Shown here: positions 8,402 through 63,562 of the stretch, piece by piece | Numbering within the stretch: position 1 is the first letter of the stretch | Layout of the letters: each line of letters opens with the position of its first letter | Source of the DNA: Octopus vulgaris | Lineage: Eukaryota | Assembly (NCBI GenBank): GCA_951406725.2 | Contig: OX597832.1 | Coordinates: 67,518,001 to 67,582,000, forward strand | DNA length: 64,000 nt | Reading direction: 5' to 3' | Program-made: the position numbers and the translations under genes | Notes under the pieces: generated by a model | What the model was told of the DNA's origin: nothing | The model's input: the letters and a program-made list of their open reading frames with translations, nothing else | The model's database searches: none

Positions 8402-8664
8402 ATATTATTATATTTCGGAATGATCATTTTGCCAGTTTAGCCAATAAAAACACACGCACTATATATTTGGTGTTACTTTGCTTCAGTGTTATTCATTTTT
8501 TACATTAATCTTAATCTTATGTGACGAAAGAACTCTGGCCGAAATACGATTAAGATTAATGTAAAAAATAAAAAAAACACTGAAGCAAAGTAACACCAAA
8601 TATATAGTGCGTGTGTTTTTATTGGCTAAACTGGCAAAATGACCATTCCGAAATATAATAATAT
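8402..8664. repeat. Long near-perfect inverted repeat (~120-bp arms, 23-bp spacer)
   Basis: 8402-8520 is the reverse complement of 8544-8664 with only a few mismatches. Confidence 0.9.
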
Positions 8665-19620: not shown

Positions 19621-21520
19621 CACCGAAATAGGAGACAGATGGAGAGAACACTTCAATGACCTCCTCAATCACAAGGCTACCATCGACAAAAGCATACACT
19701 TGACATGATTCCTAAAGAGGCCAAAGATTACTCTCTCGCTCGAAGAGGTCAAAATTGCTATCACAGCGATGAAGAACAACAAAGCTGCGGGTCCTGACGG
19801 AATCCCAGCTGAGATCTACAAACTGGGAGGTGATTTTGTCCAACACCAGCTCCACCAACTCTTGGTCAAAATCTGGACAAATGAAGTTGTACCATCCGAC
19901 TTCAGGAATGCTAACATCATTACCATTTACAAACGAAAGGGCGATCGTTCTGAGTGTGGAAATTACCGGGGTATTTCCTTATTAGCAACTGCTGGGAAGA
20001 TTCTTGCACGCATCCTGAACAACCGCCTCAAAACGCAGTCAGAGAGGATCCTTCCTGAGACGCAGACCGGCTTTAGGCCATCACGAAGCACAACCGACAT
20101 AATCTTCACGCTGCGACAGCTACAAGAAAAATGTCGTGAGCAACACCAACCGCTCTATTTGGCCTTTATCGACCTATCCAAAGCCTTTGATCGTGTCTCG
20201 CGAGAGCTCCTCTGGGATATTCTCGCCCAGTATGGATGCCCAGATAAGTTCATCCGGATTCTCAAACTTCTCCACGACAATATGCACGCCAGAGTCCAGA
20301 CCGACGGAGGCAGTTCTGAGCCCTTTAAAGTCACCTCCGGAGTGAAGCAAGGCTGCGTGATAGCGCCAACTCTCTTTACCATCTTTATCGCGACAGTGTT
20401 GCACATCATACGAGAAGACCTTTCACCTGGCATCGAGATCTCGTACAGAATGGACGGCAAGCTTTTCAACCTTGCTCGCCTCAAAAGTACGTCAAAGACA
20501 ATTGCGCAAAGCTTGCTAGAGTTCCAATATGCCGACGACAACAGAGTAGCTGCTTACAGAGAGGATCACTTCCAACAGATCCTAAATGCTTTTCATCATG
20601 CATATACTAAACTTTGACTGAGCATCAACATCAAGAAGACTCACTTACTCTACCAACCTCCTCCCAATGCCCGTGTTGACAACCCGCCATCGATTCAACT
20701 CGAAGGAATTCCACTGGAAAATGTGAACCATTTCTGCTACCTTGGGAGCCATCTGTCAGCAAAGGTAGACCTCAGCGATGAAATCCAACACTGTCTGAAG
20801 TGTGCAGGAACAGCTTTCGGCAAGCTTCGAACAAGAGTTTTTGCTGATCGGGACATCCGAACCGAAACCAAACTCATGGTGTACAGGGCAGTCATTATTT
20901 CAACCCTCCTTTACGCATCCGAAACCTGGACCCCGTATAGTCACCACCTGAAAACGCTCGAGAAATTTCACCAACGCTGTTTTCGCAAGATCCTTAACAT
21001 CAGCTGGGATAACAGAAGAACTAACGTCAGCGTGCTACAAGAAGCAAAAATGCATCGAAGCCTATGTCATCAAAGGCCAACTAAGATGGAGCGGCCACGT
21101 GGTTAGAATGACTGACGAACGACTTCCCAAACAGATCTTCTACTCCCAACTCAAAGACGGCAAGCGTACAAAAGGAGGCCAGAAGAAACGCTACAAGGAC
21201 TCCCTGAAAACGAACCTCAAAAAGTGTGACATCGACTTCACTAACTGGGAGGAAACGGCAAAAAACAGACCACTCTGGAAAACCACCATCCATGAGGGGA
21301 CGGCGACTTTAGAGTCGAAAAGGTCTGCAGAGCTGGAGGAGAAAAGACGACGACGGAAGGAGCGCCAACAACAACCACGTGCGACTCTCCCTTCCGGCAC
21401 TAGATGTCCGCATTGCAACCGATCTTTTCAAGCAAGATTTGGTCTTATCGGTCACCTACGGACTCACCAGTAAATTTGCGCGAAGAGCATCATCCTCGAC
21501 CTTGAGGGATTGCCATCATC
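19621..21520 (+). mobile_element. 5'-truncated RTE-clade LINE (RT to 3' end)
   Basis: KAAGPDGIP, NYRGISLL, FIDLSKAFD, GVKQGCVIAPTLF, QYADD; C-terminal CPHC...HLRTH; GCCATCATC tail. One in-frame stop (20615) and one frameshift (~21050). Confidence 0.95.
19769..21473 (+). pseudogene. RTE reverse transcriptase ORF, disrupted
   Basis: ORFs 19769-20617, 20723-21106 and 21099-21473 are consecutive parts of one RT protein. Confidence 0.9.
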
Positions 21521-22109
21521 ATTCTATTGTTTTACTGCCAAACCGCTAGGTCACGGGGACGTAAACATAAGACCATCGGGTGTCAAGTAATGGTGAGGGG
21601 GCAAACACAGACACAACACGCAGACACATATACATAAACATATATATAAGACGGGCTTCTTTCAGTTTCCGTCTACCAATTCCACTCACAAGGCTTTGGT
21701 CGGCCTGAGACTATATAGTATAAGGAATTTGCCCAAGATGCCACACAGTGGGACTGAACTCGAAACCACTTCACATCGCCTGTAACCATGTGGAAAGCAA
21801 GCTTCTTAGCACAGAGCCACGCCTGCGCTTATGTATGCGTATAATAATTATATCTAACATGTTTCCGTGCACTCGGACGTGTGAAGGCCATCAGCAGTGG
21901 AAACAGTGTCTGAAAATGTTTTCCTTGTAGATATAAAGCACAATAAATTTGAAATTAACAAATTAATTAGAGGCTAATAAACAGTGCTGGGTACATGTAA
22001 AACTATATTTCCAGTTAATTTATACCAGATCGACCAATATTTCTCCTCGCCGGAAAAGGTTACTCTTTGTGGTCAGTATATAGTATAACACCATTTAGTC
22101 ATATATATA

Positions 22110-22363
22110 GGCCTCCTCGATATATCGTCAGCGAGTGTCAGTCGCTGTCTGACTGACTTGTCAAATTTTCTCTTTAAATACCCGCAGATAGGCTCCAGCA
22201 GACAGCCCCAGTAAGTCGTCACATGACACTGTCTCACCTTAACTGACTAGTGAAGGCGGGTAGTCTTAGCCCGCGCATTCTCTAAACGATCGTCACCTGT
22301 CAGTCAGCGAAGCTGATTCAGTGTCACCTTGTCTCACCAAGTGATATTATTTCCCGCCGGCAT
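22110..22363 (-). repeat. 3' terminal direct repeat of the Hero-like element
   Basis: About 20 differences in ~253 bp versus 25964-26216 (counted by eye). Confidence 0.95.
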
Positions 22364-22369
22364 GTTATG

Positions 22370-25300
22370 ACTTTCAAACCATCTTTGGTCTTCTCGCTTC
22401 AGCCATATATAGAAGCTGGCTTTTTCGACCGCCTCCCTCGGAGCTAGAAAAAACAAATCTTTTGAATAGCGTTGTCATTTTCCTTTCAATGAAGCTTCTA
22501 GCCCCCACTACCAGGTGGTAATACTTGACATTCCATCCTTGTTCTCTGCATTCTTCGATGAATTTTTCATACCTCTTCTCCTTTCGTTCTTTTGCATTGC
22601 CGATGTTCTCTTCCCAAGGTACTGTCAGTTCTAGTAAAATTCCTATTCTCCATTCTCTGTTCCATAGGACTAAATCTGATTTTTTTTGTCGTTTTTACTA
22701 GTGGAAATATTACTTGTCTTTCCAAATCCGTGGCCACCTCCCAGTATCCCTTCCATCTCTCGTCTATCTCGTATATTTTACTTGGTTTTAGGTAGGACTG
22801 GTTTTATATCCTTTTCCATCCTCGTGGGAGTATACTTTCCTGCGATTTCCTACTTTTGGGTACACTCCCTTATTGTACCTCTTGATCTTCTCCTTGAGAG
22901 CTGCGCTTATGACGCCGAGGACTTGATTATGCCGCCATGTATATCTTTCTAGTGCTAGTCTGCAATTTGACAGAACATGTCTAACCGTCGCTTTCTCTCC
23001 GCATCTACACTCAAAGGTTGTTTTTATGTTCCACCGGACTAAGTTCGCCGGTGGGGGTAGAACGTCGAAGGTAGACTTGATCAGGAAGGATGTTCTTGCT
23101 TGTTCCCAAGACCAAAGTTCCTTCCATGATATTCTGCGGCTGATCACATATTCCTCCCATCTAAGGCACTGTGCCTGTTGACTACATTGCACCAAATGTA
23201 CATTTCGCCTTTCTTCTTCCTCCTTTCTCACTTCGTATACCACTACCTCTTTCATATCTTTTATACTGCTCTTGCAAAATGGCCTGAAATTGTGCGACCC
23301 TAGGCCGGTTCTTGTTCCTTGCGTCGTTCCGACTACAGCTGCGTGCCTTAGTTTTCCGATCGCCCTGTTTACTGCCTCTTTCGCCTTCCATTTCCTCCCT
23401 GTTCGTACCTTTGGCGTGTTTTCCCGGATGCTCTGATCTTTTGAATACCTTAGCATCATTACTGTCCTTGCCTTTCCTGCCTTATATTCTTCGGCCATTG
23501 ATGTTATAGGTAGTTGCAGCACGGGTTTTCCATATAGTGCAGTTGTATTCAGTGGTTTCGACAGACCAAGCCATTTTCTGATAAACACACTGCATCTTTG
23601 TTCCATCCTTTCTACCCTACTCGAGGCTCTTTTGTACATTTGCAATGGCCACATTATTCTTGGGTACAGCCCAAATTGCAGTATCCAAACTTTGAATTTT
23701 CCCGGCAGCGTTGTTCTGTCAATTGCCTTTAATCCTTGTTCTACTAACTCGTGTATTTCTTTCCCTTGCTTCTTATCATTTAATAAATATCTATACCATC
23801 TGCCGAGACTCTTTACTGGTTGTTCTTTCACCGTTGGTATGCCTTCACCTCCTATACTGAATTTCACTTCTCTTTTCCTTCCTTTCACGAAAGCCACGCT
23901 TCGAGATATTTTGGCTTTGAATTTCATCGTTGCCCATCCTATCAGTTCGTCTAACCGCTCTAACGTTCACTCTGGTGCTTCTCTACTTTCCGATAATACA
24001 GTTATGTCGTCAATAAAAGCCTTTAATGGTGTCTTTGTAACAGTTTTCTCGCAGTTTGTAGATCTAAGTAACATTTCCATGACTAGCACGAATAAGATGA
24101 CTGATATCGTGCATCCGGCTGCAATACCTATTTCAAGCGTTGCCACTCCGTTGTGAACTTTCCTACTGTAAATCTCATCATCAGGTTGTCGTAGTAGGAC
24201 ATGAGCATTCGTTGAACATCTTTTGGAATGCAAAAGAAGTCCATCGCTGTTTTTACTATTGCGTGCGGAACAGATCCATAAGCATTGGCAAGATCTAGCC
24301 AAACGATATACAGGTTTTTCTTCATTTGCTTTGTACAGGTGATGGCTTCCCAGATGGCAAATGCGTGTTCTATGCACCCAGGGATTCCGGGGATTCCTGC
24401 TTTTCGGATTGTTCATTAACGTACCCGTTATACTGTACGAATCTTAGGATTCGTCTAGCAATTATTCCAAACATTTTCCCGTCTTTATTTAGTAGTGAAA
24501 TCGGTCTAGATTGACCTTTTTCTTTTGGTATACACCATCGCTCCGCTACATCTTTCTTCTTCCACATTTCTCTTATCAGTACAAGCAGCTGCAAGCGTAA
24601 TTTCGGGCAATATTTATATACCTTGTAGCTCACTCCATCGTTCCCTGGAGTACTTTTTGCTCTTGCTTTTCTTATGAACCCATCCATTTCTTTCCGTTTG
24701 ATGCCACTCAAATCAAATGGTACTCTTTTTTCAGGTGATTTCTTCAGTTCGTGCATTTCTAGGAGTACTTCATTTCTGTCAGAGTTGCTGTATGTCTCTT
24801 TCAGATGTTGTTAGAGCTCTTCTTTTGTGAAATCCAATTTTCCGCTTTTACTTTCAGTAAATAAATGTTTCGCATATTGATAGGGAGTGTTCACAAAGCT
24901 ACGATACTTCTTTTCTCTCTCCTTTCTTCTGCTCTTTCTTCTTTGTTTTCTTAGCAGATCTCGATGCCTCTTATTTTCTCTTCATATAGCTGTTTTAGCC
25001 TTTCTCTTTCCTCCTCCTTTGCATCCCTCCATCTGGTTCTGAGTTTTTTTTTCTCTTCTCGAAACTTTGCGATCCGTCTTTCTCTCCTCGATGGGCCGCT
25101 CTTTGCCGTTGATTCTACCTTCCCTGTTGTTTCCAATCCAAATCTTTTCTCTCCTTCCTGGTAGATTTTATTAGCCAGGTTTTCGAGCTTTTGTTCGTCG
25201 TCGCCTTTGAATTTGGTGGTCATTCTTGATACCTCGTTGTCAAATTCTTTATAACTCACCGCGTCATTTGCTTTCGGCCACTTAATCTTTGTCCTCTTCA

Positions 25301-25540
25301 CGCCTATCAGTTTTTTTGATTGTTCCAATTCAACTGTGGGATGAACCTCACTATGGTTATGTTCCAGGGGTTCTGGCCACACGTCGTATGGTTTATCAAC
25401 CCTCGTTGTTGAATTACTTTCTTCTGACACACCTTCCCCTGGTGGATTCTCAGCCCGATGTAACTAGCAAACACCTTTCCGCAGCAGCTGAACTCCTCAT
25501 CTACCATCCCTATACCGTGTCCTTTCTCATGGTCCATTTC
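22370..25540 (-). pseudogene. Hero-like ZnF-RT-CCHC-RLE polyprotein, frameshifted
   Basis: ORF pieces 25307-25537, 24951-25430, 24370-24756, 24128-24325, 23967-24416 and 22788-23927 fall in domain order. Confidence 0.88.
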
Positions 25541-25963
25541 CGGTCCAAGTCCATTTCGTTTTTTCCGTCCCTATTTGATCCTTTATTCTCCCCCCGTGAT
25601 CCGGGATCATGGGGCCATGATTACCCATGTTTTTCGTTGCAATCTTCCCCCCGATCGGGCTGCAAGCCCATTTGATCCTTCATTACGCTGTCGTACTGTC
25701 AAGCGTCTCTCCGCTTTGTCATCCTTCTCTCTGGATTGTCAGCAAGTCTTTCTCTGCAGTCAGTATCTGAGGAATTACAACAACGTTTCGTCATCTGCTA
25801 CCACAACAGCTCCTTCATAGGATCCAGTTACCTCAAGATATCACCAGGAGGAACCACGTCCGTTTTCGGCCCCTACTCCTCTACCGTTTTGACGTGGCGC
25901 CCGCCCTTTCGGCGGTGTCTTCAGCTCTGGTGTTGGGTGCATGTCTTCTTTCTTCTGTTCCCT

Positions 25964-26216
25964 GGCCTCCTCGATGTATCGTCAGCGAGTGTAAGCCGGT
26001 GACAGACTGACTTGTCAAATTTTCTCTTTAAATACCTGCAGATAGGCTCCAGCAGACAGCCCCAGCAAGTTGTCACGTGACACTGTCTCACCTTAACTGA
26101 CTAATGAAGGTGCGTAGTTTTAGCCCGCGCATTCTCTAAACGACCGTCACCTGTCAGTCAGCGAAGCTGATTCAGTGTCAGCTTATCTCACCTAGTGATG
26201 TTATTTCCCGCAGCAT
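25964..26216 (-). repeat. 5' terminal direct repeat of the Hero-like element
   Basis: Copy of 22110-22363 located upstream of the 5' leader. Confidence 0.95.
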
Positions 26217-26484
26217 TTTCTTCGCCCATAAAAAATTTTACCAACAATTTTCCTCAGAGAAATAAACATGTTATGTAAATGAACATGCTAAATATAATTG
26301 TGCACATATCTATATATTCTTAAGCTGCTTTGTGAGTCGTTGGTTCAGCAATTATTTCTTCATTTTTCTAGGATTATTCATAAATTATAGTATTTATTAT
26401 TGTCATGGATTATTTATTGCATATGTCAAATTACTGTTTGGTATTTTCCCATCTACCATTGACAATATATTTCTAATATATCTA

Positions 26485-27770
26485 TCAGGTTGGTGCAAAA
26501 GTAATGGCCTATTTTAAGGTCTCTACTGAAAATGAAAAAGCCCACCATTAGGACAATATTTATTCGTTAATGTAATTTCCATTGATTTCTAGAAATTCAT
26601 TCCATCTGTTAACAAGCATATAAACGCCACGCTTGTGAATCTGTTTAGGTTTTGATGCCAAATATGAACCCAATTCATTTTCGCCCTCTTCCCTTGATGT
26701 CAACCCAAGACCATTCAAATGGTTCTATAATCCCCAAAACAAATGATAATAAGAAGGAGCAAGGTCAGGAGAATATGGAGGATGAAGCAATATTTCCCAA
26801 CCAGGCTCTTTCATGAGACTTATGGTCAGTTGAGCTGTGTGAGGACGAGTGTTATCATGGTGGAAGATTATACCCTTTCAGTTGAATAAGCAGTGTCACT
26901 TTCTGTTCAAAGCTCTTTTCAAACGATGAAGTCGCTCACAGTAGAGATTAGCAGTAACCATTTTTGATTGTTGTCTAACAGTTCGTAATGGACAATTCCT
27001 TCAGTATCCCACCATATACTCAACATGATCTTCCTTGGATGAAGTCCTCCTCTTGGTTGTTGAATAGGTCTTCGTCCTTGACTGATCCGCGAACAGTGGC
27101 ATTTAACATTATAGTAAAAGATCCACTTCTCAACATCTGTAACAAACCTTCTTAAAAATAGTCCTTTAAGGTGTCGTGAAAGCAATGACTGACAACAAAC
27201 AACACGCTGTTGTAGATTCTCTGGGTACAGTTCTTGCGGGAGACATTTTCCAACCACTGAAACCTTTCCGATTCTTTCAGTTGGCGATTCTTTCCGATTC
27301 TTTCAGTTGTATGGGCTACATTAAACTGTTCTGCAAGTTGTCTACAGGTAGCGGTTGGATTTTCTGTGACAACAGCTACCAACGCTTCGGAATCAAGTTG
27401 GTTTGAGAGACCTTCTTTTGGATCGTCTTTCAAAATCAACTCTCCACTTCTGAAGCGAGGAAACCATCTCCTGTAACTTCTTTCACTCGCTATGTCATCC
27501 CTATAAATTCTCTGAAAAGATTTTCCCGCTGTGCTTGTTTTGACACCTTTATGAAACTTATAGAGTAAGACATGTTTAATAAGATCTTTAGATGGGACGA
27601 GCATAGATGTGAATATAGTAGAAGATTATGGCCAATACAATCAGGATCCGGATGAAAAATGAATAAATTACTCATTGTGACATTCTTAAAACATTACGAG
27701 ACGTACAATTAAAAAAAAATATCTAAAACTGTTTTCTAAAAATTCGGCCATCACTTTTGCACCAACCTGA
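26485..27770 (-). mobile_element. Full-length mariner transposon (1286 bp), inactive, cecropia/Hsmar1-like TIRs
   Basis: TIRs TCAGGTTGGTGCAAAAGT(A/G)ATGGCC with TA on both sides. Degenerate motifs CLPQEL (WVPHEL), VTDVEKW, HHDNTRPH, HPPYSPDLAPSYYHLF. Confidence 0.95.
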
Positions 27771-58561: not shown

Positions 58562-58564
<3 letters not shown>

Positions 58565-61500
58565 TAGTTTTATTTTTATAGCGTACTTTCACTTCACTAC
58601 CGAGCGCAGCTCTGTGTGCCTTGGGTATGTGCTGTGATTTGTTGTGATGTTCTGATGGTTATTGTATGGAAAGTGTTCTGCGTACGATGTGTGCAGTGCC
58701 TAGTAGTGCAATTTTCTGTATGTTATATGTGTTTGTAAGTCCTGGTGTTTTTGTTATGTATTTGTCTGAATATTTTTTTATCATGCCTAATGCACCTACT
58801 ATGATAGGAATTGTTTCTGTTTTCAGATTCCACATTCTAGTTACCTCTATTTCCAGGTCTTTGTATTTTGAGAGTTTCTCCATTTCTTTTAGAGACACGT
58901 TGTCATCAGCCGGTATTGATACATCAATTAGAAAGCATTTTTTTCTTCATGATCTCTGACAACTATATCTGGTCTGTTGGCCTTAATTTCTCTATCTGTG
59001 TGTATCGGCATATCCCAGAGTATGGTTGCTTTCTCGTTTTCTGTGACCTTTTCTGGTGTGTGCCTATACCATCTTTTTTCTGTTGTTATTCCATAATGTT
59101 GGCATAGCTTCCAATGTATGTAGGTTCCAACTCTGTCATGTCTGTGAATATATTCCTTCTTAGCCAGGACTGGGCAGCTAGTGATAATATGATTTATTGT
59201 TTCTTGTCCATCTCCACATATTCTGCAGTTACTTGTAATATTTCTTTTCATTACATGTTTTTGGTAATTTCTGGTGGGGAGGCTTTGGTCTTGTGCTTGC
59301 AATTAAAAATCCCTCTGTCTCTGCTTTGAGTCCTGAGCTTCTCAACCATTGCTGGGATTTTTCTTTGTCTATTTCTTTTGCGTTTAGTTTAGTCCAGTAT
59401 TTACCATGAAGAGGATTTTCTTGCCATCGTTTTATCATGGTTCGTTGCTGTTCTATTTTTAGTTTGGATTTCATTTGTTTTATAGCTTTTGTTGTTTCTT
59501 CATCTTCTTCTTCTTCTTCATGTTTATTAGGTGGTATGATTTCTTGTTTGTATTTGTCAGCCTCCTTAAATACTGAGAACAGTTTTTTGTTTTGCTCGTG
59601 TTTTGCCGCTATCTGGATCAGTTTTCCTTCCTTCTGAAGTAGATATTTTTGCAGTCCTATGGTGGTTATTTTATAGTAGTTTTCCAGCTGTATAAGGCCT
59701 CTACCACCTTCTATACGTTGTATATATAGTCTTTCTATGTCAGATTTTGGGTGATGCATCCTAGATCCTGTCATTATTTTTCTTGTTTTCCTATCTATTT
59801 TGGTCAGTTCATTTCGTGTCCAGTTAAGGATATTGTAGCTGTAACTTATAACTGGGACGGATAAAGCGTTGATACCTATTATCTTGTTTTTAGCACTGAG
59901 CTCTGTGTTTAGTATTGTTCTAACTCGTCTATAATATTCTTTTTTTATTTTCTCTTTCATTTGTGTGTGTTGTGTCTTATCTAGTTCATGGATTCCTAAA
60001 TATTTGTAAGTTTGGCTTTGGTCTAATTCTTTTATTTCATTGGTTTTATCTAGTGTGATGTTATTACTCTTAACTAGTTTTCCTCTTTTCATGGTTATTT
60101 GGCGCATTTTTCGAATCCAAATTTCATATCTATTTCTTTGGTAAATCCATGAACTGTCTTTAATAGTGTTTCCAGCTGTTTGTCATTTGCAGCGTATAGT
60201 TTTAGGTCATCCATATATAAAAGGTGGCTGATCGTTTTGCCGTAACATTTATATCCGCATCCAGTTCTATTTAGCATATCAGATAGAGGTGACAGTGCCA
60301 AGCAGAAAAGGAGTGGAGAGAGCGTGTCTCCCTGGAATATTCCTCTTCTAATGGGGATGTCTTTGGTTTTCATGAGTCCCTCTTTTGTTTGGAGGTGTAG
60401 GACTGTTTGCCATTTATTCATAGAGTGCTCTATGAATTTTATGATTGTTGGTGCTACTTTGTTAATGGCTAGTGTTTCGAGGATCCATGTGTGGGGGATG
60501 CTATCAAACGCCTTTTTGTAGTCAAACCAGGCCATACTGAGGCCTTTCTTCTTTCTGTGGCTGTCTTCAGTTACGGCTTTATTAATCATTAGTTGATCTT
60601 CACAGCCATATGAGCCTTTGTGGCATCCTTTCTGCTCTTCTGGGAACAGTTTGTTTTCGTCCAGGTGCTTGTTCAGCCTTTGTGATATCACTGCAGTAAA
60701 TGCCTTGAACATTGTTGGGAGGCAGGTTATTGGTCTGTAGTTTTCTGGTTTTTCTGTTTCATTTGATTTGGGAATTAAGATGGTTTTCCCCTTCGTGAGC
60801 CATTCAGGCATTGTCTCTGGCTCTGCTAGTACGTTGTTAAAGTTTTCAGCCAGCTTTTTGTGCATTCCTGTTAGATATTTCAACCAGAAGTTGGGGATCT
60901 TGTCATGCCCAGGTGCCTTCCAATTGCTTAGTCTTTGCAGTGCCTGGGTGACCTCTTCAGTTGTTATGGGGGTCCAAAGTTGTTCAGATGACGAGTTCGT
61001 TATATTGATACTCCTTTTTTTGGTGGTTCGTTCGCCGACCATATTTCTCTCCAGAATTCTTCCAATTCTTCTGCCGTTGGTGCTGCAGTGACTTCTATTT
61101 TATTTTTTCCCAGTTCTTGGTAGAACTTTTTGGGGTTGGAGTTGAACTTTTTGTTCTGTTCAAAGAAGCGTTGGCGTTTCTCGTACCGGCGGATCCTTTG
61201 TGCTTTGGCAAGGATATCTTGCTTCAGCTTTTCTTTTATTTCAGGCAAATCTTTCTCTGTGATGTTATATTTGCGGAGTATTTTTGTTCTCTTTTTGTTG
61301 CTCAGTAGCGTTGATTGTTTGCTGATTTCATTAAGAATCGACAGGTCTTTTCTAATTTTTTTAATTTTGTTTTGGATGTTATTTATCCACAGGGTTTGTT
61401 TGGGTGGTGGTACTCCTGTTTGGGCGGGTTTGGGTGAGTATCCAGGATCTTTTGTGGCTGCAGTGGCTGCTGCGTATATTAAGTCATTTAGCTCAGTGAT

Positions 61501-61646
61501 ATCACTTTTTTTTTATTCAGTGGCTATCAGTTCAGTGACGGCTAGGTTTATGCTGTTTATAATAGGTGTTGTTATTTCGTTTATTTTGATTCTTGGGAGG
61601 TATGGTCGGTGGTCCATTTTGAGCTCTGAGGTTTTCAGTTCTTTGA
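58562..61646 (-). mobile_element. 5'-truncated R4/Dong-like LINE inserted in (TAA)n
   Basis: NWKAPGHD, NYRPITCL, WFDYKKAFDSIPH, GIFQGDTLSPLLF, HLLYMDD, CRIC...HIITSC, RPDIVV, EKLSKYKDL. (TTA)n on both flanks; about four frameshifts. Confidence 0.95.
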
Positions 61647-61688
<42 letters not shown>

Positions 61689-62151
61689 GAGTGAGAGAGC
61701 AGTGCATGCCATCAAAGTGACACTGGGGTAAAATATACGAAGCCCAATATACCCATCATGACTACCCGTCTGATAAGGGTACACCAGGCACATGCATCAC
61801 AACCATATGTGCGCGACATGGTGATCTCATATCAAGATATGACCTTGCAGGTGGGGCCCAGTTAGAATTTTCTTCAGGTTGAGTAGCCCATCCCGCTCAA
61901 AAGGTCCCTGAATAAGGGTTGTTTAAGGATGTTGAAAGAACCGCCCTTGTTTCCAGAGGTGAATTATTCAAACCCCAAAGAATCCCTCTCAACACATGGC
62001 TATGATACTCCCCCACTACTTCTGCTCGTGATCAGAGATGCACATATCGTCAGCCACTAAGGGACATGCTCAACTGGTTAAGGTCAAACAACTGACAAGC
62101 AAATCTGTGGTATTGAGCAGAATATTTGCTGTAGCCCATCTTTTATACCAA
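61689..62151 (-). mobile_element. ~470-bp non-coding retroposon-like unit with (TAA)n tail, copy 1
   Basis: Closely similar to 62239-62738; tail at 61647-61688. Confidence 0.8.
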
Positions 62152-62153
62152 CA

Positions 62154-62228
<75 letters not shown>

Positions 62229-62238
62229 CATTATTATT

Positions 62239-62738
62239 GATTAAGAGAGAGCAGTGCATGCCATCAAAGTGACACTGGGGTAAAATATATGAAGCCCAGT
62301 ATACTCATCGTGAATACCCGTCTGATTAGAGTACACCAGGCACATGCATCACAACCATATGTGCGCAATATGGTGATCTCATATGAAGATAAACAGTGCA
62401 TGACCTTGCAGGTGGGGGCCCAGTTAGAATTTTCTTCTGGTTGAGTAAGCCCATCCTGCTCAAAAGATCCCTGAATAAGGGTTGTTTAAGGATGTTGAAC
62501 GAACCACCCATGCTTCTAGAGGTGAATTATCCAAACCCCAAAGAATCCCTCTCAACACACAGCTATGATGCTCCCCCACTACTTCTGCTCGTGATCAGAG
62601 ATGCACATATCGTCAGCCACTTAGGGACATGCTCAACTGGTTAAGGTCACAGAACTGACAAGCAAATCTGTGGAATTGAGCAGAATATTTGCTGTAGGCC
62701 ATCTTTTATTCCAAGACAAAACAATGTCCATGATAACA
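62239..62738 (-). mobile_element. ~500-bp non-coding retroposon-like unit with (TAA)n tail, copy 2
   Basis: Tail at 62156-62238. Confidence 0.8.
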
Positions 62739-62990: not shown

Positions 62991-63104
62991 GTTGCGCCCT
63001 CATACGTTGTTTAACGAGAGTCCTTCATATAAATATATATATATATATATATACACATACATACACACATACACATACACAGAGAAGAAATGTGCAAGTG
63101 TACA

Positions 63105-63505
63105 GAGTGAGACTAAAGGAGTGCTGAGTGGGGATAGAGGAGTGCTGAGTGAAGTTAAAAGAGTGCTGAGTGAAGCTAGAGGAGTGCTGAGCGAAGGTGG
63201 AGGATAGTTGAGCGAGGCTGGAAGATAGTTGAGCGAGGCTGGAGGAGGATTGAGTGACGCAAGAGGAGAGTTGAATAGGTGTGCAGGACTACAGAATGGC
63301 TGAGTGAGGCAAGAAAAGTTTTTGAGTAAAGCTAGAGAATAGGTGTGCAGAGTGGGGCCAGAGATGAGAAGAGATGACCAGATATGAGTGAAAGTTGAGA
63401 AGAGGTGTGCAAGAGTAAAGAGTGATGCTGAAGAGGCATATGAAACTAAGAAAACATGAGTGAAACTAGGAGTGTTGAGTGAAGCTAGAGGAGTGCTGAG
63501 TGACA
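63105..63505. repeat. 21-bp minisatellite (consensus ~GTGCTGAGTGAAGCTAGAGGA)
   Basis: 21-bp periodicity, decaying in the middle. Confidence 0.8.
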
Positions 63506-63510
63506 CGAAA

Positions 63511-63562
<52 letters not shown>

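Follow-up and report, generated by a model that had tools for sequence, protein, structure and literature searches.

Did a LINE in the octopus genome acquire a copy of its own 3' UTR at its 5' end, and could that copy have served as its promoter? The question is raised by a locus of Octopus vulgaris in a 64,000-nt stretch of contig OX597832.1 (hereafter the window), in which a direct repeat of 248 nt (25964-26211 and 22110-22357, minus strand; 92% identical, 19 differences, no indel) brackets one broken minus-strand ORF with a zinc finger, an RT, a knuckle and an RLE-type C-terminus. Homology between the two copies reaches 26220/22366 if one 1-nt gap is allowed, and no third copy was found within the window. 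The original prediction read the upstream repeat as a 3' UTR copy that could act as a Pol II promoter, giving a transcript with terminal redundancy like a retroviral R region. Our tentative answer, to which we give slightly less than an even chance, is that this is a decayed HERO-like LINE, that both 3' UTR copies came from one insertion, and that the upstream copy was a likely Pol II promoter.

The element is a broken single-ORF, RLE-type LINE (22370-25942, minus strand) with a putative start at 25942. Its ORF has decayed, with two certain stops (24813 and 23969) and six to eight frameshifts in the conserved part, and homologues span it from end to end. An N-terminal zinc-finger-like motif (25427-25486, minus strand, limits approximate) gives a weak match (E 0.0025) and is also present in relatives; the first ATG stands about 150 codons ahead of it, and in P0008, whose N-terminus ahead of a detected finger is the longest among the close relatives, this part counts 135 residues. 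Toward the C-terminus lie a C-x-C-x7-H-x4-C knuckle (22962-23009, minus strand) and a restriction-like endonuclease motif region (22605-22679, minus strand), where relatives read PD..ELTVPWE and this copy has SD. A Pfam scan of the eight ORF pieces of the element returned RVT_1 and, beyond it, weak matches only.

A single ORF in which the RT is followed by a CCHC knuckle and then by a restriction-like endonuclease is the arrangement of the R2 superfamily, and it is the one present here. The knuckle spacing is C-x1-C both in the element and in its relative P0001, where PMC5678591 gives C-x2-3-C. Among solved structures, P0001 matches an R2 protein best and L1 ORF2p nearly as well. Of 2658 candidates in a search with the longest ORF piece, 221 were relatives, with 63% identity for the best, and a fragment from Octopus bimaculoides is 77% identical. 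In the supplement of PMC5678591, read by eye, the rows that agree with the element's RT motifs are HERO-1_BF and HERO-2_DR, whereas the CRE row does not. In an RT tree of 32 rows the element falls into a 16-row starred group; because this tree was built without named HERO, NeSL, R4 and R2 references, membership of the HERO clade is likely rather than proven. Judging from its sequence, the element is probably a decayed HERO-like LINE of the R2 superfamily. R2-Hero is present in cephalopods (PMC10294476; PMC13282606), and among the LINE clades of O. vulgaris Hero is a minor one (PMC13282606), with 13 recent insertions in Table 1 of the latter source that total 54,671 bp and average 4.2 kb. The element measures about 4.1 kb with the repeat and 3.85 kb without it; the 4.2-kb mean is nearer to 4.1, a weak indication given that those insertions may belong to other families.

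Like members of the HERO clade, the element combines a single ORF, an N-terminal zinc finger, RT, knuckle and RLE-type C-terminus with a 3' end that joins a TA tract. Unlike them, it has a whole 3' UTR copy at its 5' end, an arrangement that no title, abstract opening or passage in the literature searched, Repbase and Dfam entries lying outside its scope, describes for a HERO. Homologous proteins stop at 22370-22364, so the repeat represents the 3' UTR in full, and the upstream copy (25964-26211, minus strand), a pseudo-LTR, begins about 4-13 nt from the ORF end. In this respect the original prediction is supported. The native 3' UTR is the downstream copy (22110-22357, minus strand).

The two junctions of the repeat differ. 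At the inner one, the upstream copy runs directly into a purine-rich leader of 21 nt (25943-25963, minus strand) and then into the ATG at 25942, with no TA tract between repeat and leader. At the outer 3' junction the repeat enters a 10-nt TA-rich tract (22100-22109, minus strand), either target or tail, and this is the only junction with such a tract; nothing on the 5' side matches it as a TSD. No TSD adjoins the element, and the best candidate, a 10-nt match with one mismatch 93 nt from the junction, was rejected. A search for ribozymes and known RNAs gave four chance-level Rfam matches, none inside a repeat, and a simple descriptor found neither an HDV-like fold nor a proper hammerhead core. 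With a leader of 21 nt and no ribozyme found in it, a dispersed copy would have little room for an internal 5' promoter. Both repeat copies are predicted to fold into a stem (26078-26180, minus strand, in the upstream copy) in which repeat positions 32-56 pair with 110-134 (z -2.2 and -2.3; 7/200 and 6/200 shuffles as stable). None of the inter-copy differences falls in the 21 shared base pairs of this stem, an observation that we did not count because the pair set was defined circularly.

If the two repeats were laid down together, their divergence should resemble the decay of the ORF. Half the repeat divergence amounts to 0.040 per copy over the full length, and to 0.034 when only the part upstream of the putative start is counted. 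In the ORF, 15 of the 171 columns that are invariant in 33 close relatives deviate, where 14.7-17.0 would be expected had the repeats begun identical; this corresponds to 0.035 after baseline (CI 0.018-0.060), or to about 0.03 if two adjacent deviations, which may be one alignment event, are counted as such. With all 69 relatives, 7 of 81 invariant columns deviate. A stop-codon clock comes out younger, at 0.013-0.026, with two to four stops seen against 4.7-6.3 expected (P 0.06-0.40, five reference proteins); its intervals are wide, and it is weaker than the invariant-column clock. Since the repeat divergence of 0.034-0.040 matches the ORF decay of 0.035, both copies probably stem from one event. 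Together, the clocks fit one insertion and weigh against an old fragment later joined by a new copy.

The case for a promoter begins with two motifs, for which TATAWAWR is the TATA-box consensus and TCAKTY the initiator consensus. The upstream copy contains a TATA-like box, TATTTAAA, at 26034-26027 (minus strand), with one mismatch to TATAWAWR, and an initiator-like TCAGTC at 26010-26005 (minus strand), an exact match to TCAKTY, whose A at 26008 lies 26 nt past the box's first T. An identical box (22180-22173) and TCAGTC (22156-22151) occur on the same strand in the downstream copy, offset by 3854 nt. The positions in the upstream copy agree with those originally proposed, as does the distance of about 45 nt from initiator to repeat end, which is 45 nt counted from 26008. 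The TCAGTC also matches the Drosophila initiator quoted in PMC1636488.

Chance was evaluated for a box with at most one mismatch and an exact TCAKTY spaced 25-31 nt apart. When the upstream copy was shuffled 5000 times with its dinucleotides preserved, 8 products showed this pattern, and in sets of 4000 shuffles that preserved 2-, 3- and 4-mers the counts were 6, 36 and 110, respectively; the rate rises to 110/4000 at the 4-mer level because the words TCAG, GTCA and TGAC recur along the repeat as parts of stems. Of the 396 microsatellite-free tiles of 248 nt in the window, among them those over both repeats, 2 contained it, and its background is 0.039 per 248 nt when TA microsatellites are included. 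Allowing one mismatch in the initiator lets 101 of 5000 shuffles pass. Window-wide, the exact pattern has two matches against 0.12 expected, and these two count as one independent event. The motif pair is thus modestly non-random, at about 0.2-4%, for a motif picked post hoc. Its presence in both copies is uninformative, because 14 given sites would escape all 19 inter-copy differences with P=0.32, and conservation between the copies was dropped as evidence for this reason. The repeat also holds a second exact TCAKTY with no TATA, and a DPE-like 4/5 match at +28 to +32 was not counted, being expected about once in five cases by hand calculation.

The spacing of the two motifs fits less well than had been proposed. 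In mouse promoters the TATA optimum is at -30/-31 and boxes closer than -29 are rare (PMC1779604), so that 26 nt, originally regarded as canonical, is short by this rule, which comes from mouse and plant data; the literature searched yielded no mollusc data on the distance from TATA box to start. At 30 nt from the first T of the box there is only a one-mismatch initiator site, whose A is present in the downstream copy alone: position 26004 is T in the upstream copy and A in the downstream one, and either may have mutated since. Should the start be set by the TATA box, 26004-26003 is a likelier +1 than 26008. The putative R-like terminal redundancy would span 45 nt (25964-26008, minus strand). 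Five of the 19 differences, four of them transversions, are packed into 12 nt of it (25993-26004, minus strand; cluster P=0.07), beginning 30 nt past the box's first T. The putative R as a whole shows no significant excess of divergence (6/45 against 13/203, P=0.12; transversions P=0.13). The cluster could mean that the 5' R was inherited apart from the 3' R, or it could be due to chance.

How would a promoter in the 3' UTR be carried to the front of the element? Transcription from the putative promoter in the upstream 3' UTR copy would begin 41-45 nt ahead of the repeat end, and the RNA would span this start, the ORF and all that follows to where the downstream repeat ends. On a TA-rich target, target-primed reverse transcription would initiate at the RNA 3' end, and at the RNA 5' end the RT would jump to another RNA molecule, or to the same one, landing in its 3' part. 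This second copying of the 3' UTR would rebuild the promoter upstream. Acquisition of a 3' UTR and a full element in one event would fit such a template jump, and R2 proteins do jump in vitro from full-length cDNA to further 3' UTR RNA (PMC11371274). The route would be that of the Penelope pseudo-LTR, of HeT-A and, as proposed, of TART, not the retroviral one.

That a cephalopod HERO family does this routinely, using its 3' UTR as a TATA/Inr promoter, making RNA with 41-45 nt of redundancy and rebuilding the repeat by an RT jump, we consider possible but somewhat less probable than its opposite. Such a habit is favoured by a repeat boundary that lies at the ORF end, by the shortness of the leader and by the motif pair. 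Both habit and promoter have against them the single copy available, the short 26-nt spacing and the missing A at 30 nt in the very copy that would be the promoter. Two distant relatives that could be read also speak against a habit: L006 shows no repeat of this kind, and L004 is a circular unit in which no TATA-like box occurs. A jump guided by homology would be hindered by the five mismatches found among the initial 16 nt of the putative R.

The same observations could reflect a single accident, in which the RT, having copied one RNA, made a single jump to the 3' end of another and copied about 250 nt of it before stalling; the motif pair would then be a chance feature of a structured 3' UTR, and the family would rely on an internal promoter or on read-through. 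We find this account doubtful but consider it a serious contender. It explains the equal ages and the clean junction equally well, 3' UTR jumps and head-to-tail products of R2 proteins are documented (PMC11371274), and the upstream copy ends near the base of the predicted stem, which may be a plausible stall point. The short spacing and the mismatch in the box also suit it, as does a chance expectation for the pair of 1-4% under the stricter nulls for a motif picked post hoc. It needs, however, three coincidences: a truncation at the ORF end, a 21-nt leader without a ribozyme, and the motif pair.

Two separate insertions, the first leaving a 5'-truncated copy at a TA-rich target and the later one a full-length copy exactly at the 3' end of the first, appear unlikely. 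Microsatellites are targeted by some HERO families, and tandem insertion occurs now and then in a Utopia family (PMC4640811), the stop clock is slightly younger than the repeat divergence, and the cluster of differences could mark two subfamilies. Yet the more powerful invariant-column clock agrees with the repeat divergence, and no remnant of the target lies between the copies. R1 tandems formed by re-insertion keep target sequence between their copies (PMC2718515), and repeated units at 61640-62250 in the window keep (ATT)n between them, unlike the inner junction described here. An origin at the DNA level, by insertion into an existing short copy that produced a target duplication of great length, or else by recombination or local duplication, is very improbable: other local tandem duplications do occur in the window (e.g. 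37231-37417/37415-37587), but the limits of the repeat fit the element's own landmarks and include no flanking sequence.

The reading of one insertion with a promoter in the upstream copy has a parallel in Penelope, in which a truncated upstream copy, mainly 3' UTR, precedes a downstream copy of full length, and transcription starts inside the upstream repeat (PMC2377424). The same partial-tandem pseudo-LTR layout is found here, for this one copy. Penelope differs in having a GIY-YIG endonuclease and a different RT (PMC5537684); the Pfam scan of the eight ORF pieces and the structure match of P0001 revealed no GIY-YIG match or PLE-type RT in the octopus element. Mapping placed the promoter of Penelope itself internally and showed it to be TATA-less (PMC2377424). 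The RNA that HeT-A makes from its 3' promoter is terminally redundant, and for TART a jump between repeats has been proposed (PMC1636488, PMC5537684). HeT-A, TAHRE and TART form telomeric arrays, bear poly(A) tails and have no RLE, in contrast to this dispersed single copy that ends in a TA tract.

With retroviruses and other LTR elements the locus shares terminal direct repeats of about equal decay and a candidate TATA box and start inside the repeat, and the likeness ends with this layout. Neither repeat contains AATAAA or ATTAAA on the sense strand, which leaves the putative R with no poly(A) signal; the repeat terminates in GGCC rather than TG..CA, and no U5, PBS-like start, clear PPT (both judged by eye) or TSD was seen. 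The RT is of the non-LTR type, and the Pfam scan of the eight pieces gave no gag, protease, RNase H, integrase or tyrosine recombinase. The element is not an LTR element. The proposed role of the upstream copy therefore stands in part: its derivation from the 3' UTR, its similar age and the precedents of Penelope and HeT-A speak for it, while the retroviral parallel beyond layout and the 26-nt spacing do not. A Penelope/HeT-A-like partial tandem rather than a retroviral LTR, with a plausible promoter role for the upstream copy, is a description that we hold with a little under even confidence; it starts from the anatomy, the RT and RLE-type coding, the repeat as 3' UTR, the matching ages and the motif pair, all of them observed.

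The transcription of dispersed RLE-type LINEs is poorly defined; in the sources consulted, R2 is thought to borrow the rDNA promoter. A promoter in a duplicated 3' UTR would, if real, answer this question for one HERO family. The 'promoting in tandem' scheme of Penelope and HeT-A has been proposed as a step toward LTRs (PMC5537684), and it would then extend to an enzyme of the R2 superfamily. Were the arrangement family-wide, a TPRT enzyme would sustain an LTR-like life cycle outside telomeres, in early-branching RLE-type LINEs. If a single jump is responsible, the repeat is an ordinary insertion accident.

The collections searched yielded no sister copy of the element. None of 11 candidate proteins extends across the repeat-leader junction, and 1.84 billion proteins contained one match, unrelated and repetitive. 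The repeat motif is absent from the 12 of 33 supplement files of PMC10294476 and the 4 of 8 of PMC9115989 that were searched, and plasmids and phages contained no sister copy. An Atlas search added eukaryotic clusters only. A scan of bacterial genome contigs yielded nine loci from 34 candidate stretches, apparently eukaryotic contaminants; four, which share 41-54% identity, are fragments 162-573 nt long, and for the longer loci the identity is 26-33%. Two of the nine, L006 and L004, are complete enough to be read, at 23-26% identity and outside the core group. L006 (5138-9042) is a near-complete RLE-type element with (GA)n on both sides and no terminal repeat, beside a kinase-like gene of animal appearance; its 1.5-Mb contig, filed as Nitrospirales, is likely host DNA in a MAG. 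L004 (1-4403), from a Rhodospirillales MAG, is a distant RLE-type element forming a circular unit of 4284 nt with a 119-nt end overlap; (GT)n lies between its UTRs, it has no TATA-like box, and the circular assembly suggests a tandem array.

Several other repeats occupy the window. A decayed mariner-type transposase remnant (26484-27700, minus strand; Transposase_1, HTH_48) lies near the 5' flank of the element. On the plus strand, 19709-21520 holds a second, 5'-truncated LINE fragment, which we take to be RTE-like, with an RT (RVT_1 E 6e-31) and a C-terminal C2H2 finger. Another 5'-truncated RLE-type LINE, presumably Dong/R4-like, occupies 58562-61640 (minus strand) and is flanked by (TTA)n tracts. 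Two units of 460-470 nt (61693-62151 and 62245-62714), 92% identical, are each preceded by (ATT)n on the plus strand; this local tandem retains a microsatellite between its units, unlike the inner junction of the HERO-like element. A large inverted structure of about 260 nt at 8402-8664 is 90% self-complementary and possibly a MITE, and a minisatellite array of 21-nt units (63100-63513) ends at an (ATT)n tract.
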